Under the pieces are notes generated by a model that saw only the letters and a program-made list of their open reading frames with translations, had not been told where the DNA came from and ran no database searches. This document shows positions 24,600-49,220 of a stretch of 64,000 nt of DNA, in pieces. Numbering within the stretch: position 1 is the first letter of the stretch; the number at the start of each line of letters is the position of its first letter. The DNA is from an uncultured Chloroflexia bacterium (GTDB lineage: Bacteria > Chloroflexota > Dehalococcoidia > DSTF01 > JALHUB01), in NCBI GenBank assembly GCA_963703345.1, contig OY969814.1:992001-1056000 (forward strand), read 5' to 3'. The translations under genes were made by a program, and so were the position numbers.

Positions 24600-24676
24600 C
24601 GGGGTGTAGCGCAGCCCGGTAGCGCACCTGAATGGGGTTCAGGAGGTCGTGGGTTCGAATCCCACCGCCCCGACCA
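24600..24676 (+). tRNA. tRNA-Pro(GGG), intact; integration site
   Basis: Cloverleaf with CGGGGTG/CGCCCCG acceptor, CCTGA/TCAGG anticodon stem with GGG, GTTCGAATC T-loop, encoded CCA. Confidence 0.97.
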
Positions 24677-24717
24677 GTTTCCCTACAAACTGGCACAGAA
24701 CAGCCCATTATCGGGGT

Positions 24718-24750
24718 GGAAACCCGCCGAAAAGGCGGGTTTCCTGCTTT
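24718..24750 (+). terminator. Terminator downstream of tRNA-Pro
   Basis: GGAAACCCGCC-GAAAA-GGCGGGTTTCC followed by TGCTTTT. Confidence 0.7.
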
Positions 24751-24921
24751 TCTGGGGCGTTTTGGGGGCTCTCACCCATCCATCGTAAACGCCCCAGATG
24801 CGCGCGGTGAGCCGGTTACGGTACCTGAAACGGTGTTCTATTTTGCAACAGTCTTAGGGCATTCAGGCGAACAGCGATTTTGACAGGGCGGCAATTAACG
24901 GTGATCTGGGAGGAAGCTAGC

Positions 24922-26013
24922 ATGAAGATGAGAAAACGAAACCCAAGGTGGCAGGACATGGACAAGAAGAACACCCCGTTCAACCGCCTGATCGACGACT
25001 TCCTGCTGGCCAAACGCTCGGCCGGCTGCTCGGAGAAGACGGTCTCCTGGTACCGCGACAACATCCTGAGCTATGTGCGCTTTCTCGAGGGCGAGGGCAA
25101 CCCGGCCGTGCTGAAGAGCTTCTCAGCCGACAGCGTGCGCCGCTACACGGTCCACCTGCAGGGACGTAGGGTGAAGTTCGAAAACAATCCCCTGCGGCGG
25201 ACGGTCGGCGAGGCGCTGTCCAGCCAGACCGTCTTCGGCTACGTCGCCACCCTCGGCGTCTTCGCCACCTGGCTGGCTGCCGAGGGCTACACGCGTAGCA
25301 ATCTCCTGCAGGGGGTACCGCGGCCGCGGAAACGGAAGACGGCGGTCAGCGGTCTCAGCCGGGAGGAGATCGAGAGCCTTCTGGCCCGGGTTCCCAAGCA
25401 TACGCTGGTCGGTACCCGTGACCGGGCGATCCTGATAACCCTCCTGGACTGCGGCCTCCGCGCCTCCGAGCTCTGCGACCTGACGCTGAACGAGGCCCAC
25501 ATCGAGGGGGGCTACCTGAAGGTGCTGGGCAAGGGGAACAAGGAGCGGATAGTGCCGGTCGGCGCCGCCGCCTGCCGGGCGATCCTCCGCTACCGTGACT
25601 TCTTTCGCCGGGATCAGGGCAAGCCGGCGCCCAACCTCTTTCTGTCCGTTCACGGCGGCAGATTGAGCCCGGAGGCGCTCCGTCTAATGGTGCAGAGATG
25701 GGCCAAGTCGGCGGGAATCAAAGGTGCGACCGTGCACAAGCTCCGTCACACCTTCGCCCTCCAGTACCTGATGGCCGGCGGCGATGCCTTCAGCCTGCAG
25801 AAGATCCTCGGCCATACGACGATGGACATGACGCGGAACTACGTCAACATACTGCCGGCGCAGCTCGTGGAGAAGCACCGCCTTCACTCGCCGATGGACC
25901 GGATGACGATCGGCTTTCCCTCGACAAAGGGGCGAACGGACGGCAGGGACGAGTGTGGGCGTTTCGCGTCCTCCCTCCCCCGTCGCCGTAGCAGCGGTCG
26001 CGGTCGCGGATGA
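24922..26013 (+). CDS. Tyrosine recombinase/integrase
   Basis: GLRASE, GKGNKER, HKLRHT, LGH and RNY catalytic motifs; GGAGGA RBS. The last codons run into an IS remnant. Confidence 0.9.
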   Translation: MKMRKRNPRWQDMDKKNTPFNRLIDDFLLAKRSAGCSEKTVSWYRDNILSYVRFLEGEGNPAVLKSFSADSVRRYTVHLQGRRVKFENNPLRRTVGEALSSQTVFGYVATLGVFATWLAAEGYTRSNLLQGVPRPRKRKTAVSGLSREEIESLLARVPKHTLVGTRDRAILITLLDCGLRASELCDLTLNEAHIEGGYLKVLGKGNKERIVPVGAAACRAILRYRDFFRRDQGKPAPNLFLSVHGGRLSPEALRLMVQRWAKSAGIKGATVHKLRHTFALQYLMAGGDAFSLQKILGHTTMDMTRNYVNILPAQLVEKHRLHSPMDRMTIGFPSTKGRTDGRDECGRFASSLPRRRSSGRGRG

Positions 26014-26792
26014 GGTAGCGCGGCTGCTCGCCCCAAGGCGTCGCCGCGATCAGCTGGCGCCAGACCCACTCAGCGGTCGGATGAGCAGTCACGTTCAGGT
26101 GAACCAAACTCCGCCGGTGATGGGCAATGAACAAGAACACATACAAGGTCTTGAAGGTCACGGTCTGGACCGTGAAGAAGTCAGCGGCCCAGATGTGCGG
26201 TGCATGATTGCGGAGGAAGGTGCGCCAGGATTGGGACGGCGGCCGCCGCAGGGCGGAGCGGCGGTAGCAGCGGACAGATTCGGCACTGACCTGGAAGCCG
26301 AGCTTGGCGAGCTCGCCGCGGATGCGCACGCTTCCCCAGCGCGGGTTCTCCCTCGCCAGCCGCCGGATCAACTCCCTCACCTCAGTAGGGACAGGCGGCC
26401 TTCCCGGACCCCGATGCTGTCTGCTCCTCCAGGTCCAGTACTGTCGCCAGGCTTTGCGCTGCCACCGGACTACGGTGTCCGGCTGCACGATGACCAAGGT
26501 CCTCCGCCAATCAGACCAGAGGCGCGAGAGCCAGGACCAGAACAGACGGTCAGTCGCCCTCAACCTCGGCCGGCGAGATTGGCGGGAGAGGACGGCGAGC
26601 TGCTGGCGAAGGGCGATGTTCTCAAGCACGAGACACTGCCGCGAACGCAGGGTGCTGCGCAGGAGGGAGCAGAGGAGGAGGAGATATGCGATCAAGGACG
26701 GACCTCCCTGAGGGCAGAGTGCCTCAAGGCTGGTCCACTCACATCACAAGGTCAACCCTCTCTAGATACGGATGAGATTCTTGGCTCCCACA
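25984..26792 (-). mobile_element. Truncated IS (integrase-core/rve transposase, IS481-like)
   Basis: ORF from 26695 closely matches 62535-63566 but breaks after RDRDRCYG. One terminal repeat at 26764-26792 ending ACA. Confidence 0.85.
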
Positions 26793-26793
26793 G

Positions 26794-27273
26794 GTGACGA
26801 TACCCGAAGCGAGGTCGGGGGGACGCGAGGTATGGGGCTACCCTAAGTTCCTGACGCAGATACCGAGCGACGTCGCCGACAAGCAGTTCAAGTTCGCGGT
26901 GCTGGACCCCGATTCCGGCGAGCCCATCGTCGACGTAAAGGGAGAGATGGGACGCGGCCTCTCGGTGGGCGCGTTCAACATGATCACGTTCAGCAACCAC
27001 GACGACAAGATCCTGCGGACGGTGGTGGAAGCGGAGGGCAAGCTCAGACTCTCCGGCTGCAAGGGCATCGAGGTGAAGGTCGCGTTGACCAGCCACCGGA
27101 TGGCGGAGAGCCTGAGGGCGCTGGGGCTGGAGACGGCCAAGCCGTTCGGCATTATGAGCTCCGATTACATGCGGACGAAGCTGAACCCGGGAATACCCGT
27201 CGCGGAGTACAAGACGCCGGAACTGCCGTATCGCTACGCCGAGGAGCTGGAGTTCCTCAAGAGCAGGGCGTAG
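26794..27273 (+). pseudogene. Acetoacetate-decarboxylase-family gene, 5' truncated by the IS
   Basis: GREVWGYPK motif only about 10 codons from the IS end, so the N-terminal part is missing. Confidence 0.65.
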
Positions 27274-27384
27274 GGACTTCGGAGACGAACCACCAGCGCC
27301 GCGACTATAGCACTGCCTTTTCCGCCCGTCAACGCTCGTTCTGGCGCGGCACTATGTCCTCTCTGTATCCTTACCCTGCTATGT

Positions 27385-27535
27385 TAAAGGTCAGCACAGC
27401 GAAGCGGGCTGACCCTACCATGTCCTGGCTGTGTGCCTTTGATCCGACTTGTCGCCTGTTCGCTGTGCTCACGGGGCTTGACCTGATAGGGGCCCGTCTT
27501 CGACCCGAGAGAGGCTAGTCAGCCCCTGAGACTGC
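27385..27535 (+). ncRNA. Predicted IS110 bridge RNA (target- and donor-binding loops)
   Basis: Stems 27393-27414/27451-27469 and 27468-27482/27518-27530 enclose loops that match the insertion site and the element ends. Transcript ends are approximate. Confidence 0.75.
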
Positions 27536-27553
27536 GCTCGGAGGGAGGCATAG

Positions 27554-28615
27554 ATGATCACGATTGGGGTTGACGCCCACAAGCGAATGCATGTCGCTCT
27601 GGCACTCGATGATGCTGGGCAGGAGCTCGGCCACTGGCGCGGCGCCAACAGCGCCGTGGGCTGGCGGAGCCTGGCCCAGTGGGCAAGTGAACTGGGGTGT
27701 CAGCGGCGGTGGGCAATCGAAGGCGCTTGGAACTACGGCCGGGGCTTAGCGCAACAGCTGGTGACGGCAGGGGAGACGGTGTACGAGGTCAACCCGCGCT
27801 GGACCGCCCTGGGCCGACGGAGCGCCCGAAAGCCTGGCAAGACGGACAGGTTGGACGCGCACGCCGTGGCGCTTCTGGCCCGACGGGAGGCGTCCACTCT
27901 GCCGCGTGTCTCGCCGGAAGATGACACCGCTATCCTCGCCTTGCTCACGACAGAGCGCGAGGCGGCGCTTGGCGAGGCAACGCGCCTTGGCAACCAGATT
28001 CACGCCCTTCTGATGCAGCTTAACCCCGAATACGATGGTCACCTGCCCAACCTCCGCTCCAAGGCAGGCCTCGATGCACTGGAGAGCTACGCCTCGCCCA
28101 GCGGCTGCTTGCTGCAAGACGAGCGGGCGGCAGCCGTGCGAAGGCTAGCCAAACGTCTACGGCTGGCTCTTAGTCAGGCAAAGGAACTGGCCCGACAGAT
28201 CGCAGCGCATGCCGAGGCTGGCTTCTCGCCTCTAACTCGGTTGTGTGGTGTCAATCTCCTCACTGCCGGCATGCTGGCCGGTATTCTCGGCCCGGGGCGT
28301 GGGTTCTCTACTGATGCCGAACTGGCCGCCTATGCAGGCGCTGCGGCGCTTGAGGCTTCTTCCGCTGGACTTACTCGTCATCGTCTGAATCGCGGCGGCA
28401 ATCGGCGGCTCAACTCCATCCTCTATTGGATCGCGCTAACCCAGGCCCATTATTCGCCTGAGGCACGCGCCTATCTTGATCGCCGAGTTTCCGAGGGGAA
28501 GAGCCGACGAGAGGCCATTCGTGCTCTGAAGCGCTTCATCGTTCGCGCTATTTGGCGGCTCTGGCAGGAGTGCGAGGCCAGTTCTATCAAGCCGCGGGTC
28601 GAGAATGCCGCCTGA
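27554..28615 (+). CDS. IS110 family DEDD recombinase/transposase
   Basis: IGVDAHK, AIEG, GKTDRLDA, SSAG...RLNRGGNRRLN, RALKR. Confidence 0.93.
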   Translation: MITIGVDAHKRMHVALALDDAGQELGHWRGANSAVGWRSLAQWASELGCQRRWAIEGAWNYGRGLAQQLVTAGETVYEVNPRWTALGRRSARKPGKTDRLDAHAVALLARREASTLPRVSPEDDTAILALLTTEREAALGEATRLGNQIHALLMQLNPEYDGHLPNLRSKAGLDALESYASPSGCLLQDERAAAVRRLAKRLRLALSQAKELARQIAAHAEAGFSPLTRLCGVNLLTAGMLAGILGPGRGFSTDAELAAYAGAAALEASSAGLTRHRLNRGGNRRLNSILYWIALTQAHYSPEARAYLDRRVSEGKSRREAIRALKRFIVRAIWRLWQECEASSIKPRVENAA

Positions 28616-28728
28616 TCTTGTACATAGGAGCGTCGGATCGTGTCTGCTGGCCGAGACCGTCAAGCTGAGACAAGTTACAATGAAGCGTCGCGGCTTCGTA
28701 GACGGTGAGATTGGACGGCTAAAGCCAG

Positions 28729-29826
28729 ATGCTCGCACTACAAGAGATAAGGCGGAAGAGACTCCAGTTCGGACTTATAACCCTCATCGTCGGTCTCGTG
28801 GTCTACCTGCTAGTGATGATAAGCGCACTGGGAAGTGGTCTGATGTCGGCCATGTCCGGCGCGGTGGATTCCTTCAACGCCGACCTGGTGGTGTTCAGTG
28901 CAGACTCAAACAAAAGCTTCCTAAGGAGCGAGCTCACCGCCGACCAGCAGGGCGCCATGGTAGGGCTGTTGGGTGCGGATAGGACCGGAGCAGTCGGCTA
29001 CATGGTCGCCACGGCGCAACGAACGGTAGGGAGCGAGGAAGTTGCCCTCTTCGGCTTCCAGCCGGGCAGCATCGCCGAGCCCGCTGTGAGGTCGGGTCGG
29101 CCGATTGAGGGCCAAGATGAGATCCTGATCGACGCGAGCCTGTCCCGCTCCAGCGGCTTGCGGCTCGGCGATGTCGTTGTTATGCGCAGCGCCCTGAAGG
29201 ACTACGAGTTTACGGTCGTCGGCGAGGTCGAAAGTGGACAGTTCTTGGGGCTCCCTGCGGCCTGGGTCAGCATCGACCGCTGGCGCGAGATGCGCTACCC
29301 GGGGCAGGGTAAGGATGCCCCCGCCGCCAGCGTTCTCCTGATCCGAGGTGGCGGAGCCGACGTGGGTGGCCGTGTGGAGGCGGCGGTCGGCAATACAAGC
29401 GTTGTCACAAAGAGCGCTGCCATAGCCTCCATCGGAGGTGTAAAGCAGCAGCAGCAGGTTGTGATGACGATAGAGCTTTTCGGGTTCGTTATCGGAGCTC
29501 TGGTGATCGGCTCCTTCTTCTTCGTCCTGACGATGCAGCGGTCATACGAGATCGCCATATTCAAGGCGATTGGTGCTTCCAACTGGTGGGTTTTTGGCCA
29601 ACTGATCCGCCAGGTGATGGTCGTAGCCCTGGCCGGCGTCGCTATGGGTATACCGCTGGCTCTGCTGACGGCAGCGGTTATCCCTTCGGACGTACCCTTG
29701 GAAGTGACGGCGAGTGCCTTCCTAACAGGAGGGATCAGCATAACCATCGCGGCGCTTATTGGTGGCGTCTTTTCGGCTCGTCAGGTGGTCCGGGTGAACC
29801 CCCTGAGCGCGCTGGGGCAGGTGTGA
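28729..29826 (+). CDS. ABC transporter permease (MacB/FtsX-like)
   Basis: N-terminal TM, extracytoplasmic domain, EIAIFKAIGAS, three C-terminal TMs. Confidence 0.85.
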   Translation: MLALQEIRRKRLQFGLITLIVGLVVYLLVMISALGSGLMSAMSGAVDSFNADLVVFSADSNKSFLRSELTADQQGAMVGLLGADRTGAVGYMVATAQRTVGSEEVALFGFQPGSIAEPAVRSGRPIEGQDEILIDASLSRSSGLRLGDVVVMRSALKDYEFTVVGEVESGQFLGLPAAWVSIDRWREMRYPGQGKDAPAASVLLIRGGGADVGGRVEAAVGNTSVVTKSAAIASIGGVKQQQQVVMTIELFGFVIGALVIGSFFFVLTMQRSYEIAIFKAIGASNWWVFGQLIRQVMVVALAGVAMGIPLALLTAAVIPSDVPLEVTASAFLTGGISITIAALIGGVFSARQVVRVNPLSALGQV

Positions 29827-30524
29827 TGATTGAGGATGATCAGGGACTGATAGCGCAGTCGCTGGCAAAAGTCTACGCGTCCGGCGAAACGACCGTAGAA
29901 GCAGTCCGCGAGGCTTCCCTCACCGTACGTCCGGGTGAGTTCGTTGCGGTCGTGGGGCCGAGCGGCTCCGGGAAGACGACCCTGCTGGCGATGCTTGGCG
30001 GGTTGGTCACCCCCACCCGCGGACGCGTCATCGTCGGCGCCACTGACATCGCCCACTTGAGCGAGGCGAAGCGAGCGCGCTTCCGCAGGGAACGGGTAGG
30101 GTTCGTATTCCAGGGCTTCAACCTAGTTCCCTACCTGACCGCGGAGCAGAACATCCTGACAATCGCCTCCATTTCCGGCAAACTCAATGGAGAAGCGCGG
30201 AGAAGGGCTCGCCAGCTACTACAGGAGTTAGGCATGGGGGAACGATCCCATCATCTTCCGGGTAAGCTATCAGGTGGGGAGAGGCAGCGGGTCGCCATCG
30301 GTCGGGCACTTATGAACGACCCTCTTCTGGTGCTGGTAGACGAGCCCACCTCAAACCTGGACTCTGAGCAGGGCAGCGCTGTGGTGCGTAGTTTGGCTGA
30401 TGAGGTAAAGGTACGTAACAAGATCGGTGTCATGGTCACGCACGATCGACGGATGTTGACGTACGTGGACAGAGTACTTGAGATGGCCGACGGACAGCTT
30501 CTGTCGCCTCGGGAAACCCACTGA
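29826..30524 (+). CDS. ABC transporter ATP-binding protein (LolD/MacB-like)
   Basis: GPSGSGKTT, LSGGERQRVA, DEPT; TGATG coupling to the permease. Confidence 0.92.
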   Translation: MIEDDQGLIAQSLAKVYASGETTVEAVREASLTVRPGEFVAVVGPSGSGKTTLLAMLGGLVTPTRGRVIVGATDIAHLSEAKRARFRRERVGFVFQGFNLVPYLTAEQNILTIASISGKLNGEARRRARQLLQELGMGERSHHLPGKLSGGERQRVAIGRALMNDPLLVLVDEPTSNLDSEQGSAVVRSLADEVKVRNKIGVMVTHDRRMLTYVDRVLEMADGQLLSPRETH

Positions 30525-30762
30525 GAGTCTCGGCCACGAGCACGCATGAATGCGGTCTTGGAGCGGGACTCGATATCCGTGGCCCACACGATGCACGCTT
30601 AGTGTGCGTTCCTGCCGACGCCAGAGCGTCGCTGCCGTCAGCCGTGGAGGAAAGCGATGCCCGACCTTTTCTCGCCCGCCTTGTGAGATTCAACGGCGTG
30701 GAGCAAGGCGGCACGGGCGGCGTTTGCAGAACTACCCCGGCATACCGAGCACGAGAGTTCCT

Positions 30763-32640
30763 CTAATTCCCACCCATCAGGTCTTGCGCGATGCCCAGAT
30801 GATATTGGCTCATCGCGTCGTTCCCCAGCCAGGCATATACGCTTGCAACCTCCTGGCGCACCGTCAGATTGTAGGGGTCTAGAGCGACGGCCTCTTCCAG
30901 CAACCGGTACACGTCTTCCACCGGCTCAACCCGCAGATTCGCCAGTTCACCCCGCACCGACGCGAGCATCAGCACGGAATACGCGTCCGGCGCATAGTCT
31001 CGGGTCACCCGTTCGTAGGTGGCCTCCGACCGTTCAAGCCAGGCGGTCGACTCGGTTGACGCCACCGCCAGGTCGTATTCGTACTGCCCACGGTCCAGTA
31101 GATACTGACGTTCCAAGGGATTAAGTGTAGACGCTTGTTGCGAGAGACGGACAGCGTTTTCGAGGTCGCCGGCCGCCGCCGCTCGCTGCGCTTCCCCGGC
31201 AGCCAAGTCGCCACCAACGAGGGTGGCCGCCCACGCCAGCGCAACGAAGCCGCCGACCAACGCGGCCGCTCCGAACGCCCAGCGAGAAAGCCGTCGCCGT
31301 CCCGTCGTTGGTTGGCAGTTCGATGGCGCGACGCCGCTTGCTGCGCCGACCGCGGCGCCCATCAGAAGCCAGAGCACCCAAGTCGTCATGCCCTCCGTGA
31401 AACCGAAGTAGAGGGCGGAAACATAGCCGACGATTGCTGCCATCGACCCCACCAGGCCGTAACGCAATCGTCTGTCGCAACAAAGAGACGTGCTGCTCCA
31501 AGAGACGGTCAACACAGTGACCAACAGCCAGACGAAGGCGCCAAGCCCAAGGAGACCGGTCCCGGTCCCCAGATCGAGGAAGACGTTGTGGGCGCTTTCG
31601 GGCCGAACGTTATCGGTGCCAATGCCCGGCTGGTTAGGCCGACGGTACTTCGAGAAGAGGATGGGAAAGGCATCTTGCCCTCCGCCAAAGATAGGTCGAT
31701 CTGCCATCATCTCCAGCGCGGATCGCCACAGGCCAATTCTCATCGCCACGGACGTCTCGGTGAAATCGGTTGCTGACGCGATGCGCTCAGCGCCATGACT
31801 CGCTACGCTCCTGCCTTGAGCCATGGTTACGAACAGAGTGCCGCTTAGGATTAGGCCGAGCAGCACACAGAGAACACCGAACCTTGTCCACCGGACGCTG
31901 TGTATCAAGGAGGCTGCCAGGATGACCGCGACTGCGGCTGCTCCAATCCAGCCGGCCCGGCTCGACGTCAGGAGCAGGGCGATCACCATCACGACGGCTC
32001 CGACGGCCAACAGCCAGCGCCAGGAGCTCCCTCGGCCCACAAACAGTCCCGCCGTGGCTGCCAGGCTGACCACGAGGAAGGCACCCAGCACATCGGGTTG
32101 GCCAAACGTGGAGCCAACGCGGCCCTCTGGAATCTGTACCCACTCAATCCAGTCCAGCCCTAGCCGTTGGATCAGCGCATAGCCGGCCACCGCTGTCCCT
32201 GAGACAAACATGCCGCCCAGCACTATGCTCAAGTCCCGGCGCGATCGTACGAAAGCGGCCGAAACCAAGAAGAGCGCAACGTAGAGAAGAGTAGGAAGCA
32301 GACCTTGGTACCGCTCACTCTCGCCGAGAAGGCTAGCCCGTCGGTCAACGGCGAATGCGACGGCAACTACGTTGGCGATGATGAAGGCCAGAAGAGGCAA
32401 GACAACCGCTGCCCGAAGGCTCCAGTCCTCGCCCTTGCCACGGGCCGCCATGTATGCGATCCACAAGAGCCCGCCGCCGACGAACGCAGCGGTCGCGGCC
32501 AGCCGAGGCAGCACCAGTTGGTCAGCCAGTGGCTCCACAACCACAAGCGGAACCACCACCGCCAAGAGGGCCAGCCAGAGAGCGCCCGTGACACCAGGCG
32601 ATGCGCCGGCGAGATCACGCAGTCTCAGCGAGGTACGCAA
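30763..32640 (-). CDS. O-antigen ligase/O-oligosaccharyltransferase-like membrane protein with TPR-like C-terminus
   Basis: RVGSTFGQP, TSSRAGW, RIGLW, SAHNVFL (Wzy_C-type motifs). Confidence 0.85.
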   Translation of the reverse strand: MRTSLRLRDLAGASPGVTGALWLALLAVVVPLVVVEPLADQLVLPRLAATAAFVGGGLLWIAYMAARGKGEDWSLRAAVVLPLLAFIIANVVAVAFAVDRRASLLGESERYQGLLPTLLYVALFLVSAAFVRSRRDLSIVLGGMFVSGTAVAGYALIQRLGLDWIEWVQIPEGRVGSTFGQPDVLGAFLVVSLAATAGLFVGRGSSWRWLLAVGAVVMVIALLLTSSRAGWIGAAAVAVILAASLIHSVRWTRFGVLCVLLGLILSGTLFVTMAQGRSVASHGAERIASATDFTETSVAMRIGLWRSALEMMADRPIFGGGQDAFPILFSKYRRPNQPGIGTDNVRPESAHNVFLDLGTGTGLLGLGAFVWLLVTVLTVSWSSTSLCCDRRLRYGLVGSMAAIVGYVSALYFGFTEGMTTWVLWLLMGAAVGAASGVAPSNCQPTTGRRRLSRWAFGAAALVGGFVALAWAATLVGGDLAAGEAQRAAAAGDLENAVRLSQQASTLNPLERQYLLDRGQYEYDLAVASTESTAWLERSEATYERVTRDYAPDAYSVLMLASVRGELANLRVEPVEDVYRLLEEAVALDPYNLTVRQEVASVYAWLGNDAMSQYHLGIAQDLMGGN

Positions 32641-32757
32641 GACGTGTATGCGCCCAACGAATAGGTATTAGCGGAGAGCCGGCACACTCGAGCGACAGCC
32701 AATGCCGAAGTCCGAGAGCTCCTCACCAAAGAGGTGCGGTAAGCCAGCGCCAGCAGG

Positions 32758-34425: not shown

Positions 34426-34455
34426 CCTATTCTCTCTCCTCGGTGTTGCCGGGCT

Positions 34456-41500: not shown

Positions 41501-42000
41501 GCGCCCGTGCCGCCGGCGCACTTATCGTTCATGTTGGCGAGCTTCCGCTTGCGGCCCGTCTTCGGGTCCTCCCGCCAGATGATGATCTTGGCGTCCTGCC
41601 CTCCCAACTCGATGACTGAGCCCACGTCCGGCTGCAGTGCCTCCGCGGCCAGGGAGACGGCGTTGACCTCCTGCACGAACCGCGCCCCAATGTGAGGGGC
41701 GAGCGTCGCGCCGCCGCTTCCGGTGACGAAGATGCGGAACTGCTCGACGGGCAAGAGGAAGCGCTCTTCTATCTCCTTGAGGACCTCGAGGACCTTCTCC
41801 GGCTGGCACGTCTCATGGAGGCGGTAGTCGGCGCAGAGGATCTCCTTGCTGTCGGGCGCGACGACCACGTACTTGACGGCTGTCGAGCCAACGTCAAGCC
41901 CGATGATGAGCTCGCAGTGAGACGAGCCGTCGCCGTCCTGATGCGGTGTCAAGACCGAGGACGACAAAGCATGTGTGGTACCGTCACCCTCAACCTCCAA
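38518..42000 (-). CDS. CoA-substrate-specific enzyme activase (2x BadF/BadG/BcrA/BcrD ATPase plus DUF2229-like domain)
   Basis: GLDVGST, ELGGQDAK, MNDKCAGGTG, DGGSTSTK, DVGGQDIK, CSAGNG, RPYH. Confidence 0.85.
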   Translation of the reverse strand: MEVEGDGTTHALSSSVLTPHQDGDGSSHCELIIGLDVGSTAVKYVVVAPDSKEILCADYRLHETCQPEKVLEVLKEIEERFLLPVEQFRIFVTGSGGATLAPHIGARFVQEVNAVSLAAEALQPDVGSVIELGGQDAKIIIWREDPKTGRKRKLANMNDKCAGGTGAVIDRIAAKLHLSPAQLREMRYASAKVYPVAGKCGVFAETDMNSLQKQGVPPEDLMVSLFEAIVQQNLSVLTRGNVLRPKVLLLGGPNTFFPCLQEAWRRHVPRLWEERGLALPAGSTAEELIVVPEHSLYYAALGTALYGQQEEGLAGTYAGTAALEEYIDLGRRKAKQHTGQRGPLAPGEDLEEFRRLYGTKPFTPLAFSPGQVVEAYMGLDGGSTSTKAVLTDVGGNLLAKAYQLCKGNPLQDAKEILGELRRQVEGQGARLRILGMATTGYAKDLLKEALGADLAIPETVAHARSALRYYPDVDVIADVGGQDIKVIIMKAGAVKDFKLNTQCSAGNGYFLQSTTARFGYDLNQWADVALSAERAPAFHYGCAVFLEQDISHFQQLGWQPSEIMAGLALTLPKNVWLYVVQETNLARFGKTFLLQGGTHYNLAVVKAQYDFIKARVPDAKIHVHPHAGESGALGAASEAIRVSDGGESSFIGFDRVEALTFTTTRDESTRCSFCKNKCLRTFVDIRTSPEHTTRFISATCERGMAESIDAVRVFNTRENAVKKANPNFIEIAAREAFHSYSPQSVAATNGSGRRFLSVWDGSGTVARLRERRATVRIGIPRLLTMYSYAPFFTAYLESLGVLHRNILWSDYTDDQMFREGSRRGSIDPCYPAKIAVSHVHNLLTKKQPDIVFFPEMMNVPSDIYECQAGWSCPTVQGIPEVVKAAFTTEKDAFAEKGACFYAPVLHMAEPNLFEQQMLTFVRPILGVSPEENAAAMREGYRALAAFRGSLRRRAREVLDRLEDEGRLGIVLLGRPYHNDPGVNHDIPELIQRLGYPVFTIDSLPMDDDILDRLFGEEVRWGEIGDPRDIHDVWKHTFSENTSRKVWAAKFVARHPNLAGIDFSSFKCGLDSPIYHVIEGILEAAGTPYFAFHDLDENRPVGSIKLRVETIDYFLRRRLEDMQRRRETEQEIERRVASYRKRLQEEILLVGGGRVHDRVSG

Positions 42001-42257: not shown

Positions 42258-42294
42258 GGAGCGGGAAACGGGACTCGAACCCGCGACCCTCTGC
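42258..42294 (-). pseudogene. Second tRNA-Gly 3' fragment
   Basis: GGAGCGGGAAACGGGACTCGAACCCGCGACCCTCTGC, homologous to the 36524 copy. Confidence 0.7.
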
Positions 42295-42508
42295 CCGGAA
42301 TCAGCTGCCGCACGCATCTTCTTGACTGGCAGCAGCCAGCACGCCACAATAGCGCTGCCTGGCGCCGCGCCGTATCAGCTACGAGCTGAGCAGCGGAAGA
42401 TTCAGGAGAAACACTCGGCCTGGTCAGATTCTCCGCCTGAATCTTCTCCAATGGCGGCCGCTGGCAGATTCGGGATCGGCGCTTTCGGCGGGATTCCCGC
42501 CCTCAATG

Positions 42509-42553
42509 ATGGGGTTCAGGAGGTCGTGGGTTCGAATCCCACCGCCCCGACCA
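42509..42553 (+). repeat. tRNA-Pro 3' half (att repeat 3)
   Basis: 45 bp identical to 24632-24676. Confidence 0.95.
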
Positions 42554-42998
42554 GAATGAAATCAGAGGGTCGCTTTCGAAGCTGGAGAAAAGGCAGCGCG
42601 GCTCTTTTTAGGTGGACGCACCAACGCCTAACGAGTGGGTTCAGGAGGTCGGTCTGGCAAAGGCGACCTCCTGAATGGTATCGGACCAGATCACATTACG
42701 TCACACCTGCTCACAGCTTGTCTCGCGCCTGAACACCAGAGAAGCGCGATAAGGTGTCAGGCGATAGTAAGAGTTGCTACTTGCCCACCCTCATCCGCCC
42801 CTGCAGTTGACCTCGGTTGTCTCTCTGGCCTCGGTGGGTCGCTTGTGTGGTGGCCCTCTTCTTGTCGCAGTCCTCCAACGAGGACTAGCCCATTTCCACC
42901 TCAGGGGGCAAACCCGGCGCCTCCCCCACCGGGGTGACACGAACCGCTTTACGTCTCAAGCGGCCGAGAGATAGGCTGGCGATTGCTTATCAAGAGAG

Positions 42999-44663
42999 AT
43001 GATGGACACCTCAGGCACACAGTCGCAGTGCGCCGCCCGGTACTACCTTGTGAGCGAACAGAGAACGAGCCTCAGAAACCACAGAGGCCTCCTGCGCCTT
43101 CGAGGGCGAGGCCGCCTGCTGTCGTTGCTCGAGATGCCGGCCATCCTCACCCGACTGAACGTCGCGCCCGATGGACGCTTCGTTCCCGAGATGCAGGATT
43201 GGGAGTCTTTCTGGGCACCGGCGCATGAGCTAGCCAACCCGCAGATCGATCACGTCCTGGAGAGGCTTCACGCTTCCTGGCAGGACTACATCCGATCTCG
43301 CTTCGACCGATCGCTGCAGCGGGAGTACTGCCTCTGGTACTTCTCCCTCCTGGATCTCATCTTGGCGACGCCCGTTGGCCGGCGGGATTCCCTCCCCTGG
43401 CAGCGGGCGCTACGGGCCGTCGTGGGCTTCGAGTGTTTCGGCATAAGGGCACCAGCCCTCGGCGCGGAGGCTCTGGCTGCGGGCACGATGACCCTTCGCA
43501 ACCCCTGTTACGTCCTTGCCAAGCTCAGATGGCCGGACGCCTTGGACGATACCCAGTTCCTTCCCCTCATCGGCCCACCACACGGCAAGCCTGCCAGCCT
43601 CTACTACCACTACCGGCAGTACCGGCTCTCAAAGGATTCACCTATGTCGCTTCTTCTGTATGTGGCGGCCGCTCCCACGCATCGCTTGACGAGCTTCAGA
43701 CTCGTTGAGTCGTTGGCGCGGGGCGTCAGTTCAGGCGGCGATCCTCGCACTGGGCAGCGGGCGCGACGCCTGTGGGAGAAGGTTCTCAGGCCGATCGTCC
43801 AAACTGCCCGCACCGATGCAACGACAGCAATGCCCGTTGAGTTAGTTGACGTCGGCGCGGGCAGTGGCGCCCTGACCGCTGCTCTCTGCCATAGGCTCCT
43901 GGCCTGGGGCGTGGCAAACGGACTCTTGCCTCGGCTTCGCGTATGGTTTGTGGACTTGTGCCTCTCCGACCCGGCGCGGTTCTTTCGGGCCGCTGGCCTG
44001 AGAAACCGCATCGACAGTCTGACGTTCCTGGGCGACGACTATCGCCGTTGGCTGGCGCGGCCGGGGCCGCTGCCCGAATCCTCAGGTATTCGAGTGGCGC
44101 TAATCTCGAAGCTCTTCAACAACTTGAGCCGTTTCTCAGTTTGCCGTTGTCGCACAGATGTGCTATCCTCCTCGTCAACTGGCACACCGTTCATCGACGG
44201 GCGAAGGCACCTGCCGTCTTTCTGTTTGGCGCCCGACGGTGCGGGTCCGGAGGCTCTCGTGATCTCCACTTCACGCCTTGGCTTGGCTGAGGGCCGGACC
44301 TTTGCCCAAGCCTCACTCTCAGACTACTACCGTGCGCTCCAGCTGGCGCTCGCGGACGGCAAAGAGGAGGAGGTATCGGAGGACGGAGCCTGGCTGCCAC
44401 TGAGGGCCCTCGATCCTGGATGCCTCATCGCCGCCGACGGGACGAGTGTACTCGCGCGGCTCTTGGAGCACTGCGACTACCTCATCGTTGAGGACGCCGA
44501 TCTGAGGCCGAAGGACATCGTCAAACACCTGCGAGCGTTCTCGCTGGATGGGCTGGCCGCCCTTGACATGACCAAGACGCTGGGCCTCATCGGGAACCAC
44601 GCATACCTACTCTCAAGCAAGGGTGAAAAGAAGACTTCACTACCGGGGGAGCGAATATGGTAG
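42999..44663 (+). CDS. Uncharacterised protein with a class I SAM-dependent methyltransferase-like motif
   Basis: ELVDVGAGSG motif I and later VWFVD; N-terminal half unrecognised. Confidence 0.55.
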   Translation: MMDTSGTQSQCAARYYLVSEQRTSLRNHRGLLRLRGRGRLLSLLEMPAILTRLNVAPDGRFVPEMQDWESFWAPAHELANPQIDHVLERLHASWQDYIRSRFDRSLQREYCLWYFSLLDLILATPVGRRDSLPWQRALRAVVGFECFGIRAPALGAEALAAGTMTLRNPCYVLAKLRWPDALDDTQFLPLIGPPHGKPASLYYHYRQYRLSKDSPMSLLLYVAAAPTHRLTSFRLVESLARGVSSGGDPRTGQRARRLWEKVLRPIVQTARTDATTAMPVELVDVGAGSGALTAALCHRLLAWGVANGLLPRLRVWFVDLCLSDPARFFRAAGLRNRIDSLTFLGDDYRRWLARPGPLPESSGIRVALISKLFNNLSRFSVCRCRTDVLSSSSTGTPFIDGRRHLPSFCLAPDGAGPEALVISTSRLGLAEGRTFAQASLSDYYRALQLALADGKEEEVSEDGAWLPLRALDPGCLIAADGTSVLARLLEHCDYLIVEDADLRPKDIVKHLRAFSLDGLAALDMTKTLGLIGNHAYLLSSKGEKKTSLPGERIW

Positions 44664-45628
44664 ACGTCATCAGGGCGGGCCGCAGGTCGGCGGTCCTGAC
44701 GCCGTCCGACCTCCCTTGCCTCTCGACGATCCCAACCATCAACCTCACCGCCGGCTGTCTCCACGGCTGCGCCTACTGCTACATCCGCGGCTACAGCACG
44801 TTCCCCGGCGAGGGTCGGGTGGTCCTGTACGAGAACACGCTGGAGAAGCTCCAGCATGAACTTGTGCGACGGCGGGCGAAACCGCGTGCGGTCTACTTCA
44901 GCCCCTCCAGCGACCCCTTCCAGCCAGCACCGGAGGTTCTCGAGCTCGCCCGGGCGGTGCTTGCGTTTCTGCTCAGGGAGGGGATCGGCGTTGCCTTCTT
45001 GACCAAGGGCCGCATTCCCGACAATATAATGCGGCTTCTCGTCGAGCACGCCGAGTTGGTGCGGGCCCAGGTCGGCATCACCACCTTGGACGACGCTGTC
45101 TCGCGGGCGTTCGAGCCCAACTCCGCCAGCCCCGAACAACGCCTGGCGCAGATGCAGGCGCTCATCGCCGCCAACGTGCCGACGGAGGCGCGGCTCGACC
45201 CTGTCCTGCCGGGTCTGACGGACGACCCGCGGTCGATGGATCGCCTCTTCGCCGCCCTGACCCGGATCGGCGTCAGGCGGGCGGCGGCGAGCGTGCTCTT
45301 CCTCAGACCGGCCATCGTGCAATCTCTTCGATGGAACGTGCCCGACAAGGAGATGCTGGCGCGGCTCCTCAGCGCCTACCAGGGGAGCGAGCGTATAGGG
45401 CTCCGCGGCACCGGATCACACGTCCAGACGCTGCCGTCCGCGGTCAGAGGCGAACTCTTCGCGCGGATGCGGGAGATAGCGTTGGCGCACAGCATCGAGT
45501 TGAGTATCTGCGCCTGCAAGAACCCTGACCTGGCGAGCGGCTCCTGCAATATCGCCGGCAGATGGCCCAAGCAGGAGGCCTGGTCCGTTCAGCCTGTCCT
45601 TGCAGGTGAGTTTGCCAGCAGGCAGTGA
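44657..45628 (+). CDS. Radical SAM protein, spore-photoproduct-lyase-like family
   Basis: GCLHGCAYCY, SDPFQP, FLTKG, FEP, C-terminal CACKN; overlaps the upstream gene. Confidence 0.85.
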   Translation: MVDVIRAGRRSAVLTPSDLPCLSTIPTINLTAGCLHGCAYCYIRGYSTFPGEGRVVLYENTLEKLQHELVRRRAKPRAVYFSPSSDPFQPAPEVLELARAVLAFLLREGIGVAFLTKGRIPDNIMRLLVEHAELVRAQVGITTLDDAVSRAFEPNSASPEQRLAQMQALIAANVPTEARLDPVLPGLTDDPRSMDRLFAALTRIGVRRAAASVLFLRPAIVQSLRWNVPDKEMLARLLSAYQGSERIGLRGTGSHVQTLPSAVRGELFARMREIALAHSIELSICACKNPDLASGSCNIAGRWPKQEAWSVQPVLAGEFASRQ

Positions 45629-45640
45629 AAAGGTGAACGC

Positions 45641-46274
45641 ATGCTTCAGGATATCCCTATTGATAGCCTTGTCGCCCATCCTGACAACAGCAACCACATG
45701 AGCACCGAGATGCTCAAGAAGCTGCGTCGGCATATCGAACGGACGGGAAGATACGAGCCGCTGACTGTCCGCCCGCACCCGAGCGCGGAGGACAAGTATG
45801 AGGTTCTCAACGGTCACAACCGGCTGCGCGTCCTTCGGGCTATCGGACGAAACTCGGCGTGCTGTGTCGTGTGGGATGTCGACGACTCCCAGGCCAGGCT
45901 CTATCTCGCCACACTCAACCGCCTCGCCGGCAGCGATACTCCGGAACGGCGGGCGGCTCTTCTGGAGAACCTTCTAGGCACCTTCGATATGACGGAGCTT
46001 TTGGGGGTTGCTCCCTGATAGTCAACGCCAAATCGAGGAGCTCCAGCGGCTGTCACGCCTGGACACAGAAGAACTCATCTCTTCCGGCATGACTGACAGA
46101 GACGAATCTGGCGTGCCCGTTATCCTAGACTTCGTTCTGGAGGAGTCCGAGGCCAAGGAAGTGAACCTCGCCCTGGACATGGTCCGAGCCCCTGAAGGAC
46201 AGAGCATCTCCAGCGGCCAGGCGCTTGTCCGGCTCGCACGCTTCTATCTCGCTGGCTGCAAGCCAAGCTGCTGA
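45641..46274 (+). pseudogene. ParB/Sulfiredoxin N-domain protein split by a frameshift
   Basis: HPDNSN, EPLTVR, YEVLNGHNR. Dropping one G from G5 at 46003-46007 joins it to LLPDSQRQIEEL. Confidence 0.75.
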
Positions 46275-46317
46275 GAGTAGGCCGCCGCTCCATGCTCCCA
46301 ATCTGAGGCAGGCTTCT

Positions 46318-46716
46318 ATGGGGAACGACCACTTTTCAGAGCTGCTGCGGCACTTCAAGCGGAGTGAGGCTCCCGAGGCCGTCCTCCTCGTAGCCGACGA
46401 CCCAACGCTTACCAAGATCGTCGTGGCATGGAACAATCTTGACCTACGGCCGGGCAAGAAGCCTAGGCGATCCCCCGGAGAGTCGGAGCATGACCAGTGG
46501 GACTGGCTCTGGGCCAACGTCAGCTATTCCCTCGAGGACTTGGCCGAGAGAAGCGGTCTCACTGTCGCTCTCATCGAGCGGAAGCTTAAGCCGCTCATCG
46601 GGAACCGCATTCTGTATCCCGACGGTTCTGTGAACTCGTTCGTGCAGCGGTATCTGCGGGAACGGGTACTCAAGCTGTTCGATGCGAAACCGAGGAAGCC
46701 GGCCAAAACCGGTTGA
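46318..46716 (+). CDS. Hypothetical protein, possible winged HTH
   Basis: 132 aa; SLEDLAERSGLTVALIERKLKPL resembles an HTH. Confidence 0.6.
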   Translation: MGNDHFSELLRHFKRSEAPEAVLLVADDPTLTKIVVAWNNLDLRPGKKPRRSPGESEHDQWDWLWANVSYSLEDLAERSGLTVALIERKLKPLIGNRILYPDGSVNSFVQRYLRERVLKLFDAKPRKPAKTG

Positions 46717-46968
46717 CACTCTTCACAACGGCCGCAGGCGCCATTCCGCCAGCGCAGTACCTACGGCTGTTTGCTCGATCCGCTGTGTCTGACCTACAAG
46801 CACATGCGGCCGGAGGACTCAGCCCATCTCATTAGTCTACGCCACCCTCGCCACAATCCGTGGCTGGCCGACTAACCGCCCCGCCGCGGATTTGCGGGTC
46901 ACACCAGGAATACAGGCGGCGGGGGCAGCTACGGACAGCGTTTTGCCTCCACACCTCTGGCGCCCCAC

Positions 46969-47015
46969 TTGCATGTCATCGGAATGTCAAATATAGTTTG
47001 ACCTATGAGTGACAT
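46969..47015 (+). promoter_or_regulatory. Promoter with overlapping inverted-repeat operator for the abiE pair
   Basis: TTGCAT-N17-TATAGT. TGTCA/TGAC half-sites flank the -10. ATG is 7 nt after the -10 (leaderless). Confidence 0.6.
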
Positions 47016-47643
47016 CAATGCCGCATCGCGCACCCGCCGACCTGCTTCCCAACCGGATCGCGCCCGACTCTTCGATATCGCTTCAGAGCAGGGTGGCTAC
47101 TTCACGGCTGAGCAAGCCCGGGTTTCTGGTTTTAGCCGATCACTTGTCTCGCATCACGTGAAGAGCGGCCGGTTCATCAGAGTACGTCGGGGACTGTATC
47201 GCTTTCGTGAGTATCCGGCGTCGCCGCGTGAGCACGTGCTCGCCGCGTGGCTCGCAGTAGGGAAGGACGTAGCCGTCGTCTCGCACGAAAGCGCACTTGA
47301 CCTGCTCGACCTCAGCGACGTGATACCGGATGCGGTACACCTTACTGTTCCTCGGTCGCGGCGCAACGTCCTCACGCTCCCCGGTGTGAAGGTCCACACC
47401 ACTGCTCGATCACCAAGGTCGGAAGACGTTGTCGTGCGCGATGGTATGGCCATCACCTCGGCCACGCGCAGCATCCTCGACGCAGCCGAGATGGGGACAG
47501 CACCGGAGCAGCTTGAGATGGCTGTCATTCAGGCGATTGAGCGCGGCCTGGCCACCCCGCGACAACTGCGGCAGGATGCCGTAGCGCGCGGACGGCGAGT
47601 GGCAACACTGATCGAGGAAGCGCTTCGCAGGTTTCGGCAATGA
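47005..47643 (+). CDS. Type IV TA antitoxin, AbiEi family
   Basis: ASEQGGYFT, RVRRGLYR, VSHESAL. Confidence 0.85.
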   Translation: MSDINAASRTRRPASQPDRARLFDIASEQGGYFTAEQARVSGFSRSLVSHHVKSGRFIRVRRGLYRFREYPASPREHVLAAWLAVGKDVAVVSHESALDLLDLSDVIPDAVHLTVPRSRRNVLTLPGVKVHTTARSPRSEDVVVRDGMAITSATRSILDAAEMGTAPEQLEMAVIQAIERGLATPRQLRQDAVARGRRVATLIEEALRRFRQ

Positions 47644-48524
47644 AATACGCCACTCCCGGCGCATTCCGTAGGGCTCTCGAACAGTGACTCCTGACGATGG
47701 CCAGGGAGACAGATGTCCCACTGATGCGGCTGCGCAAGCTCGTTGTCTTCGACCGCTTGATGGCGCGCCTGGTGGTCGTGGCTCCGAACCGCTGGGTCGT
47801 CAAGGGTGCGGCGGCCCTCCTCTTTCGCCTGGGAGCCAGGTCTCGCACCACGAAAGACCTCGATCTCGGGCGCCAAGATAACGAGGAGGCGGCAACGGCC
47901 GACTTTCTTGCAGCACAGTCGCTCGATCTTGGTGACCACTTCACGTTTGCCATCGAGCGCACGAAGAAGCTGGACGCGATGCTGGAAGGTGTCGCGGTGC
48001 GGTACCACGTTGTCGCAGAGTTCGGCGGGCGCGTGTTTGAGGACGTGACGGTCGACGTCGGCTTCGGGGATCCCGTCGTCGCTGATCCAGAGCTCGTGCG
48101 CGGACCAGATCTACGGAGCTTCGCGGATATCCCTCCCGCCGAAGTGCCGGCGTTGCCTCTGGAACAGCATGTCGCCGAGAAGATTCATGCCTACACCCGG
48201 AGCTACGTCGGCGGCCGCCCGAGCACCCGTGTCAAGGACCTTCTCGACCTCGCCATGATGGGGTCGCTCTTCAGCTTCCAGGCTGGCCGCCTGCGGCGAG
48301 CCCTTGAGGCCACGTTTGCTGCTCGTGATACCCATCTGCTGCCATCTGTGCTTCCTGCGCCACCGCCCCAGTGGGGTGTTGCGTACCGAAGGACGGCTAC
48401 CGAGGTCGGTTTGGACTCTGACATGTCGATGGGGTACGAGCAGGCGGCGGCGTTTCTCAATCCGATCTTGGCGGGGACAACTCCATCTGATGCCCGATGG
48501 GATCCCGTGCAGCGTACCTGGTAG
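47640..48524 (+). pseudogene. AbiEii-family nucleotidyltransferase toxin with an early in-frame TGA
   Basis: ATGA-coupled start MKYATPGAFRRALEQ*LLTMAR with TGA at 47685-47687; KGAAAL, RTTKDLD, AEKIHA, STRVKDL. Confidence 0.8.
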
Positions 48525-48804
48525 TAGGAGGGGTCACGAGACGGCATGGAGTAGTAGGATAAGGCCTCGCCTCAGACACGAGAATGGGCCCGATAGCGCC
48601 GTCCAGGATCACACGGGAGGACTTGCGCCGAACTTCAAAACCTTGGGTATCGCTTCTTGGCCAGCGCCGCCTGCCCCTTGCACAATATGCTGAAATAGCT
48701 AGAATTAGCTCGAATTAGGTGCGGCGCGACCGCCTGAATAGGCGCCGAAGGCGGTCCGCATCGAATCTGAAAAGGCCGGTTTCGCCTCGAAACTCAGCCT
48801 CCAA

Positions 48805-48849
48805 ATGGGGTTCAGGAGGTCGTGGGTTCGAATCCCACCGCCCCGACCA
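48805..48849 (+). repeat. tRNA-Pro 3' half (att repeat 4)
   Basis: 45 bp identical to 24632-24676, followed by a terminator hairpin at 48864-48905. Confidence 0.95.
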
Positions 48850-49026
48850 GAATGAAATCAGGAGGTCGGTTTCGAGGCTAACAGCCCGCGAAACCGACCG
48901 TTTTTGCGTTCCTCCAAGGCCGCCTGTAATCAGGAGGTCGCTTCCACAAGCAGGCAGCCTCCGGAGGATCGTCTCACCACATCACACCGCGTCACACCTG
49001 CTCACAACCCGTCACAGGGCGCCCCG

Positions 49027-49091
49027 GCTCAGGCGGAGAGTTCGGTTTCCTAAACCGAAGGGCGCAGGTTCGAGTCCTGCCGGGAGTATCA
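49027..49091 (+). pseudogene. Decayed tRNA-Arg(CCT)
   Basis: TCGGT-TTCCTAA-ACCGA anticodon arm and GCAGG-TTCGAGT-CCTGC T arm; 5' acceptor strand missing. Confidence 0.7.
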
Positions 49092-49094
49092 CAC

Positions 49095-49220
49095 CCGAAT
49101 GGATTGTCGGCACACTACAGCGCCGGATCGTCGCTCTACCGGTTCTCGGTGGCCTTCACCACGAGTACGATTGGGTGGCCGCTTGAGGTACGCAGATGGA
49201 TCCAATATTGTTCCCTCACA
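49095..49220 (+). mobile_element. Internally deleted 3' end of an IS481-like element
   Basis: Encodes IVGTLQRRIVALPVLGGLHHEYDWVAA* (compare the 62535 transposase end); terminus ...CCCTCACA. Confidence 0.75.

Follow-up and report, generated by a model that had tools for sequence, protein, structure and literature searches.

Tandem accretion and cis-mobilizable elements (CIMEs) have been defined for islands related to ICESt1 (PMC5704250). Among the ssrA islands of Dehalococcoides described in PMC3146451, 16 have an integration module and 15 lack one, and the latter were proposed to be CIMEs. The Islander description assigns tRNA-targeting genomic islands that use the anticodon loop to a site class of their own, site A (PMC4383910). 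Among the titles listed in our literature search, none concerned such arrays in the bacterial family considered here.

Here we analyse such an array in a window of 64,000 nucleotides from an uncultured Chloroflexota bacterium, by which we mean the whole stretch of DNA studied. The reading we prefer, at a probability of about 0.62, is a stack of units at the anticodon loop of tRNA-Pro(GGG), three of the four integrase-free, whose ends likely derive from at least two element families and which are likely moved only with a matching helper. It draws on identical cores, family-specific end pairs, missing integrase genes, an empty site and differing arrays in relatives. By analogy, the array fits tandem accretion of cis-mobilizable elements, as published for the Dehalococcoides ssrA islands. 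New here are the stereotyped ends and a built-in pseudo-tRNA-Arg site.

Architecture of the tRNA-Pro(GGG) array

The 45-bp core that delimits the units lies at 24632-24676, 36807-36851, 42509-42553 and 48805-48849 and is 100% identical among all four. It is the 3′ half of tRNA-Pro(GGG), its first base falling exactly at the anticodon loop and its end reaching CCA. The original prediction had placed identical tRNA-Pro 3′ halves at these four positions and units of about 12.2, 5.7 and 6.3 kb between them, and the measured core-to-core distances of 12175, 5702 and 6296 bp bear this out. As in Islander site A, the repeat is a 3′ fragment from the anticodon loop in the same orientation, with an empty site in a relative. 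This genome holds five exact copies of the core, and a reversed-pattern control for the search gave 0 matches in 61 of 61 genomes. G045, a genome flagged as unpublished, counts in search tallies alone, and none of our claims depends on it. Unit 4, once thought to be open-ended, continues past the window and ends at genome position 1096377, where it is closed by a type B right end (window-scale 104163-104280, 86% like that of unit 3) and, next to it, the fifth core, which is inverted (window-scale 104377-104422, 55.5 kb beyond core 4 and outside the window). The outermost att of the array is gone.

The predicted sharing of ends was also found. Units 1 and 2 agree at 97.7% over the 43 bp past CCA on the left and at 78% over 409 columns, core included, on the right (167 of the 188 nearest bases); we call these ends type A. 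Units 3 and 4 have another left end in common (type B; 74% over 215 columns including the core). Unit sizes range from 2 to 63 kb and gene orientation is mixed, with the cargo of unit 2 and the first genes of unit 4 on the minus strand and that of unit 3 on the plus strand. The features are as follows, with the strand in brackets where one is assigned.

24600-24676 (+): tRNA-Pro(GGG) gene; its 3′ 45 bp (24632-24676) are the att core
24677-24921 (+): left end type A, which is the integrase leader; terminator-like hairpin 24718-24744; inverted core-like half sites at 24824 and 24863
24922-26013 (+): tyrosine integrase, family A; open frame, full catalytic set, SAM-like N-terminus, not IntI
25981-26794 (−): IS481/IS3-like remnant directly behind the integrase; terminal repeat near 26763-26792
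26794-33144: unit 1 cargo; ADC-like gene, IS110 transposase, FtsX permease and ABC ATPase, O-antigen-ligase-like gene, ORF with 18-bp tandem repeats
33568-33647 (+): degenerate tRNA-Pro 5′ half with upstream flank
33905-34505 (−): nested tRNA-Val(TAC)-type mini-cassette; Val core, DUF1330 gene, Val-array end
34641-34842: 200-bp piece; IS-type inverted repeats at its borders, part of a Gly-family arm inside
35002-36310 (−): DUF362 gene with a frame break near 36100
36436-36570 (−): tRNA-Gly(CCC) 3′ half and downstream arm, pointing away from the Pro core
36571-36806 (+): unit 1 right end type A; sigma70-like promoter 36620-36648 facing the core; GATTCAGG, CCTGAATC and CAGATTC motifs at fixed spacing
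36807-36894 (+): core 2 and truncated type A left end of 43 bp
36936-42000 (−): unit 2 cargo; 535-aa ORF without Pfam or NCBIfam match, BadF-type CoA activase
42258-42508: tRNA-Gly(CCC) piece (minus strand) and unit 2 right end type A; promoter-like boxes 42322-42350
42509-42720 (+): core 3 and left end type B; TCACA repeats at about 42691-42717; leader of a family B integrase, the gene itself absent
42999-48524 (+): unit 3 cargo; 554-aa ORF, radical SAM gene, ParB-like gene, AbiEi/AbiEii toxin-antitoxin pair
48679-48804 (+): unit 3 right end type B
48805-49018 (+): core 4 and left end type B; 51 nt identical to the integrase leader of locus L169; hairpin; TCACA repeats
49019-49091 (+): pseudo-tRNA-Arg(CCT) in the place of the integrase gene
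49138-49221 (+): solo IS481-like end
49327-64000: start of unit 4 cargo; Ig-like gene, adenylate-cyclase/TPR gene, RCC1/NHL repeat gene, IS481-like copy

Nested within the units, though not noted in the original prediction, are fragments of further tRNAs (Val, Gly and Arg) and a Pro 5′ half. The Val-type mini-cassette is 93% like one cassette in this genome's tRNA-Val array. The Pro 5′ half is likely the scar of an element targeting that half; integrases targeting the 5′ half lie upstream of the tRNA-Pro gene in G002 and at five metagenome loci. The pseudo-tRNA-Arg(CCT) is a candidate secondary docking site; integrases adjacent to Arg(CCT) occur in G027 and G042.

Unit 2, with a left end of merely 43 bp, may be dead. 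In unit 3, the 554-aa ORF is methyltransferase-like, a lead only, and the ParB-like gene has a frame break near 45999. One short-read contig from a near-identical population (depth 2.6) lacks this break, which could be an error of the consensus. Of the earlier observation that cores stay identical while cargo genes decay, the part on the cores stands; decay is limited to the IS481-like remnant and the breaks in the DUF362 and ParB-like genes.

End families and their integrases

The gene opening with ATG at 24922 encodes the only tyrosine integrase among the four units, as had been proposed. The original prediction had also staked itself on the absence of decayed integrases, and profile and tblastn searches found neither a tyrosine integrase nor a remnant in units 2-4. 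PF00239 has four matches in the whole genome and none in the array, PF02534 and PF13814 have none in this genome, and no primase, polymerase or helicase was matched among the scanned window ORFs of units 1-3. Neither a relaxase, the mark of an integrative mobilizable element, nor the coupling protein that often accompanies it was found in unit 1 among PF02534/PF13814 and ORF profile matches.

Five integrase types use this tRNA, each lying behind the core. In a quick tree, which gave long-branch warnings, the 24922 integrase clusters with tRNA-adjacent integrases. The 24922 protein shares 31-39% identity with the three other short-leader types; the family B integrase (38% identical) was not found in this genome. 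In units 3 and 4 the left end follows the leader of the family B integrase at L169 and departs from it about 20 bp short of the start codon. A search for this integrase in 93 genomes of the order, run without a positive control, found none at E 1e-75, and direct comparison with those four of this genome's six integrases that are not Xer-like gave 39% at best.

Left and right end classes are associated in 16 complete units (0 of 100000 permutations), the classes having been defined post hoc and the units stemming from few related genomes. The 51 junctions comprise 18 end combinations, and the pairing of ends at junctions also departs from randomness (p 0.001). A motif of the type B right end recurs in the left end tied to another, arm-type integrase, and units 3 and 4 could therefore be hybrids. 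Type A right ends are conserved as short motifs at fixed spacing: 18 of 23 keep the promoter boxes and their spacing while the spacers vary. A conserved RNA or attC-like fold was not supported by the consensus fold of these 23 ends (-10.7 kcal/mol, main helix nearly invariant); folding covered type A. Rfam gave tRNA matches and, on the tRNA halves, sub-threshold tmRNA matches.

Relatives and competing explanations

In G003 the site is empty: within 68 bp the tRNA gene meets DNA that resumes 92 kb later in this genome. G008 carries, on one contig, its own four-copy array of three units with no integrase. Across four genomes, 11 of 14 complete units have neither integrase nor remnant (profile, tblastn). 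Unit 2 cargo recurs at 91-94% in G007 beside different neighbours, and G015, a member of another genus, has unit 3 immediately after its tRNA gene at 88.5-94% identity (3050 of 6251 bases comparable), against 67-78% for flanking host genes and 80% for GAPDH; this putative case of cross-genus transfer represents one lineage, L122 and L144 being 99.7-100% G015. Units switch position and neighbours among relatives, and the absence of shuffling that would have told against the original prediction does not hold.

Under the preferred reading of a helper-dependent stack, autonomous parents with integrase, relaxase and coupling protein would enter the intact tRNA gene, and new arrivals would shift older units outward. 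G006 offers a model for such a parent, an element with an orthologous integrase, two Replic_Relax genes and a coupling protein. The integrase gene would then be lost, partly through IS481-type deletions, while both ends stay; 9 of 11 IS481-like ends lie within tRNA-array regions, which, as drawn by hand, make up 12% of the genome. The 24922 integrase could serve unit 1 and perhaps unit 2, with their type A ends, and units 3 and 4 would depend on an outside family B integrase. Between cells, units might ride with a neighbouring relaxase-bearing element or travel by DNA uptake. Movement in trans is what we infer, and the data are matched no less well by cis-mobilization with a neighbour. Comparison of four public runs (contigs) with the window showed no circle, att junction, excision or bridged core, and no joint was listed in the closest run. 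L181, which joins a type B right end, a core and a unit 3 left end, was considered as a unit 3 circle and rejected, its flanks differing from unit 3. Viral contigs held no exact core, and plasmids only 4 short tRNA matches.

The original prediction let one integrase serve every unit in an integron-like system. That the resident 24922 integrase shuffles the whole array is, in our judgement, quite unlikely. It is the only integrase at the locus, its frame is intact, and it has no Pfam arm-binding domain, so relaxed specificity is possible; because core-like half sites occur in the arms of all families (TCAGGAG is 17-fold enriched across 164 arms), cross-action is possible too. The type B leader, however, comes from a different integrase family and end pairs are family-specific; the protein scores 54.2 bits against the IntI model TIGR02249, whose cut-off is 265; cargo strand varies from unit to unit; and of the 13 genomes with enough sequence, 3 have a family A integrase behind the tRNA, 2 have one of type C and 8 have none there. 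If instead each unit had brought an integrase of its own, lost it where it stood and never moved again, the array would be a fossil record. An integrase or a piece of one lies downstream of 8 of 20 intact genes and 2 of 25 internal cores (Fisher p 0.014; 45 distinct metagenome sites, each with at least 1 kb of downstream sequence), broken integrases exist (G006, L097, L147, G013), IS ends are scattered across units, and the lost outermost att and flipped fifth core would suit this reading. Such stasis is nonetheless unlikely. Of the left end with pseudo-tRNA-Arg in place of an integrase there are 17 distinct copies, spread over at least two genera and with differing cargo behind them, unit 3 is integrase-free at the identical point in two genera at high identity, and the right-end promoter boxes are kept.

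Units might also have spread through transformation and RecA-type recombination at shared cores or arms, with no integrase involved. All 5 genomes searched have ComEC (in G008 it is split), this genome gives no match to PF02534 or PF13814, and a G012 copy turns from Arg to Asn tRNA sequence within the shared T-arm, resembling homology-driven exchange. We nevertheless consider this improbable. The flanks switch at two set positions, on the left at the anticodon loop and on the right at the CCA end; the constant spacing of arm motifs points to bound proteins; and 45 bp is little homology for RecA. Misassembly at the repeat can be rejected almost outright because the G003 site is empty and G008 has its array on a single contig. 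The closest public run has no contig across any core, and at least one consensus indel is likely, but that run covers 28 of 30 bins over units 1-4 at similar, low depth, and each core has distinct flanks that recur beside it in independent genomes and 88 metagenome loci.

A bolder reading remains tentative, and we hold it to be possible rather than probable. The integrase-free units would not be decayed islands but a self-propagating family of non-autonomous cassettes relaying cargo between tRNA loci, with the pseudo-tRNA-Arg as landing pad for Arg-site elements, a right end bearing a Gly site and promoter, and visiting helpers supplying integrases. Together with this genome's integrase-free tRNA-Val and tRNA-Lys arrays, they would form a distributed, tRNA-based counterpart of the integron.

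Significance and comparison with described systems

Islander-type searches, as described, resolve tandem members only where each has its own integrase (PMC4383910), and because of this need such arrays would be under-counted. Integrase-free tRNA islands are usually taken for dead remnants. Because the ends, candidate helper integrases and empty site are all defined here, liveness and end-pair specificity are testable in one plasmid assay. The matched small set of integrases with one common 45-bp core should also aid studies of att specificity.

Integrons combine IntI, attI and attC with an enzyme-free cargo array beside one recombinase. The present array shares the enzyme-free units next to one recombinase, but it has no IntI, no attC-like fold in its type A ends, units of 2-63 kb and mixed orientation. 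Its strands differ among units, unlike cassettes oriented from a common promoter, and its occupant varies among 13 genomes, unlike a fixed integrase platform. The integron-like label is therefore dropped.

The Dehalococcoides ssrA islands likewise stand in tandem behind one RNA gene, with a tRNA-like locus inside an element, but as described they target ssrA, have a repeat of 20 bp and rely on the serine recombinase DsiB (PMC3146451), whereas here the target is a tRNA-Pro anticodon loop, the repeat 45 bp and the enzymes several tyrosine integrase families, with PF00239 absent from the array. Prochlorococcus tycheposons also have tRNA-targeted tyrosine integrases, with neighbours separated by partial tRNAs, partial tRNAs also scattered about, and newcomers driving older elements deeper into the island, but are described as having their own integrase and often replication genes (bioRxiv 10.1101/2020.12.28.424599); three of our four units carry no integrase, and units 2-4 lack both. 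Small gene cassettes inserted additively at tRNAs with partial-tRNA direct repeats and cross-genus transfer are reported for Ca. Actinomarinales, in a main text that does not use the word 'integrase' and gives no enzymes or end structures (PMC7771536); here both are identified by sequence. CIMEs are described as having lost integration and transfer genes while keeping attL and attR, and as standing in tandem with an integrase-bearing element, the elements sharing a site while their integrases are distantly related (PMC5704250). Units 2-4 agree in having no tyrosine integrase, PF00239, PF02534 or PF13814, and unit 1 is the integrase-bearing neighbour at the same site. Their cores and arms are present by sequence, the unit 2 left end being cut at 43 bp and the unit 4 right core flipped. 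The array differs from described CIMEs in its integrase-free majority, stereotyped ends across genera and nested att pieces of other tRNAs, and its mobilization is putative.

The tRNA-Pro array and its extent

The array lies in the 2.28-Mb single-contig source genome (G000), of which the window covers G000:C1:992001-1056000, behind this gene:

24600-24676, tRNA-Pro(GGG), called by ARAGORN

The last 45 bases of the gene, which begin with the first anticodon-loop base and end at CCA, form a core, and anticodon-loop crossover is a site class recognised for tRNA islands (PMC4383910). As the original prediction stated, the copies at 24632, 36807, 42509 and 48805 are identical, with ends shared between units 1 and 2 and between units 3 and 4 (a unit being the DNA between successive cores). 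Unit 4, previously described as open-ended, is closed by a fifth exact core, which is situated in inverted orientation beyond the window and preceded by a right end 86% similar to the one in unit 3, giving a unit of 55.5 kb. Around this core about 150 bp are inverted, with a type B right end on one side and a TCACA/Arg module on the other (G000:C1:1096163-1096671, locus L192). Native synteny with two related genomes, G003 and G002, restarts at genome position 1108624 with no terminal core there, and the island therefore spans about 92 kb and no longer has its final att; in G003 the tRNA-Pro insertion site is empty.

The core was present in 15 of 61 related genomes, 8 of which besides G000 carry multiple copies, and a reversed-core control matched none of the 61. 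Single-contig genome G008 has the tRNA-Pro gene and three repeats. An exact core search of metagenomes returned 88 loci, several of them near-identical to genomes already counted and so not all independent, in which the same end types were found again. Public runs consist of contigs only, and none bridges the cores. The array is not an artefact.

The cargo includes large repeat-rich genes at 55059-62233 (RCC1, NHL, thrombospondin type 3), whose repeats have paralogues at several sites elsewhere in G000, a short minus-strand open reading frame with an internal 18-bp tandem repeat (32753-33040), and the following gene:

G000:C1:1086487-1095393 (L191), GH94 glycoside phosphorylase-like gene (2968 aa), at the distal end of unit 4

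DNA of this gene occurs at 87-91% identity and at differing positions in unit 2 of G008, in genome G001 and in locus L131. The AbiE pair (46908-48536; 95%) and the ADC-like gene (26793-27282; 98%) have copies near each other on contig C6 of G002, not beside a Pro core.

Integrase families and the pairing of ends

G000 encodes six tyrosine recombinases, one of them at the tRNA-Pro locus, and gives four serine recombinase matches, none within the array. The tRNA-Pro integrase, family A, starts at 24922 in unit 1, has retained the catalytic residues and shares 92% identity with the G004 ortholog; as an integron integrase it was rejected, scoring 54 bits on that model against a cut-off of 265. Its relatives adjoin Lys, Arg and Gly tRNA genes, several beside Replic_Relax relaxases, and an element in G006 combines an orthologous but broken integrase with a pair of these relaxases plus a coupling protein. 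These neighbourhoods suggest that the parents of the units were likely integrative mobilizable elements, of which unit 1 would have lost the relaxase and coupling-protein genes. Of genes bearing on the route of transfer, ComEC was found in five of five genomes and a coupling protein in one of five. An IS481-like remnant lies directly behind the unit 1 integrase; 9 of 11 IS481-like ends fall inside tRNA arrays, and such ends may trim elements.

The array had been proposed to be served by one integrase. We found instead several types behind the core: family A with left-end type LA, the L169 type with LB, the L157/L117/L175 type, type C, and, in reverse orientation, an integrase whose N-terminal part is long. 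The second, third and fourth share 31-39% identity with the 24922 protein. In units 3 and 4 the left end can be aligned to the L169 leader across a hairpin, additional TCAGGAGG half sites and four TCACA repeats, unit 4 departing from it about 20 bp ahead of the start codon, and no L169-type integrase occurs among the six tyrosine recombinases of G000; it is mainly for this reason that we reject service by one integrase. Left- and right-end classes are associated in 16 complete units (0 of 100000 permutations), whereas 51 classified junctions mix them in 18 combinations, albeit non-randomly (p 0.001); these p values overstate the case because classes were set post hoc and the units are related. 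Counting against a multi-family reading, right-end type RB has a motif in common with the left end of another family. Core-like half sites also occur in the arms of all end types, so one integrase could possibly act across families on foreign ends.

Conservation among 23 aligned copies of right-end type RA, one of which (L145) is not a true RA, is confined to short motifs with fixed spacing. A predicted sigma70-like promoter with a 17-bp spacer points at the core in 18 of the 23. Excision of ICEclc joins a promoter to the integrase gene (PMC5812530); here LA has a terminator-like hairpin between the predicted promoter and the integrase gene. Covariation across the 23 copies gave no support to an attC-like fold in RA. 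Type C left ends (in genomes G008, G007, G012 and G013) bear a second symmetric core-like site about 100-150 bp inward with a different 7-bp spacer, possibly an accessory or secondary recombination site, and pseudo-cores resembling it occur in Gly and Lys arms.

Integrase-free units, nested tRNA pieces and probable movement

Searched with a profile of 32 integrases and by tblastn with those 32 sequences, 3 of 14 complete Pro units in four genomes gave matches, and the remaining 11 showed no integrase remnant. Among metagenome loci with at least 1 kb downstream (53 of 88; 45 distinct), an integrase or a piece of one adjoins the core in 10 of 45: 8 of 20 at intact genes, as against 2 of 25 at internal cores. 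The 15 tRNA-Pro gene copies in genomes include 13 with enough sequence, in which an integrase (two types) comes next in 5 and none in 8. This distribution agrees with the arrival of new autonomous elements at the gene and is at odds with a fixed platform.

Pieces of other tRNA genes are nested within the units. Unit 1 contains a Pro 5' half and a mini-cassette of Val type that resembles one of the G000 Val array at 93%, and an inverted Gly half lies just outside RA in units 1 and 2 and in several metagenome loci. In unit 4 a degenerate whole tRNA-Arg(CCT) occupies the place of the integrase gene. This module has 17 distinct copies, 3 called as tRNA by ARAGORN; the sequence past its CCA end varies, 5 of 17 matching DNA 3' of the tRNA-Arg gene of G000 itself. 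Three different Pro left ends are each followed by the module and then by the first cargo of unit 4, which in two further loci is inverted ahead of a right end. The module would be a secondary att site, a landing pad or a scar; a tRNA-like locus within the element is also described for Dehalococcoides ssrA islands (PMC3146451).

In G015, a genome of another genus, unit 3 immediately follows the tRNA gene, with its leader at 94% and its genes at 88.5-88.8% (3050 bases comparable); that contig's host genes are at 67-78%, and GAPDH at 80%. This match suggests that, in one lineage, a unit without an integrase crossed between genera. In G007 the cargo of unit 2 is found at 91-94%, flanked by different neighbours and with a different left context, which we read as rearrangement rather than transfer because G007 host genes are at 93%. 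Over 164 bases, locus L181 matches the unit 3 left end at 96%, and different cargo follows. We infer that integrase-free units are mobile.

Other arrays and known systems

Further arrays occur elsewhere in G000:

G000:C1:1252833-1259685 (L193), tRNA-Val(TAC) array, five integrase-free units of 0.75-2.5 kb
G000:C1:568379-594902, tRNA-Lys(TTT) array, four integrase-free units, two arm types alternating
G000:C1:2241582-2283752 and 1-8481, tRNA-Gly(CCC) array, two units, one with an integrase mid-unit

The Val array is the most integron-like of G000; most of its units share a conserved terminal arm of about 125 bp, and its cargo includes DUF1330, Usp and hemerythrin genes. More Val sites lie near 1919-1922 kb, 1982 kb and 2126 kb. 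Upstream of the tRNA-Asn gene stand three 28-bp copies of its 5' end at 103-bp spacing (G000:C1:1810704-1811108), and a 3' repeat follows 320 bp downstream.

Our literature search found nothing on tRNA arrays of this bacterial family. The proposed integron-like system survives as a loose analogy, in that the array works somewhat like an integron, but it fails each integron feature tested. The array is a real, well-defined case of tandem accretion. What is added here is a resolved anatomy: several integrase families share one core, an integrase gene has been lost cleanly from behind its leader, a pseudo-tRNA-Arg site is built in, and one transfer has probably crossed genera. The arrangement, judged by sequence, agrees with the definition in PMC5704250 of accretion and of cis-mobilizable elements, which keep attL and attR and have lost integration and transfer genes. 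Its integrase-free units match the module-less islands among the Dehalococcoides ssrA islands described in PMC3146451 (15 without versus 16 with an integration module), and its arrangement matches those described for tycheposon islands and for the additive cassettes of Actinomarinales.
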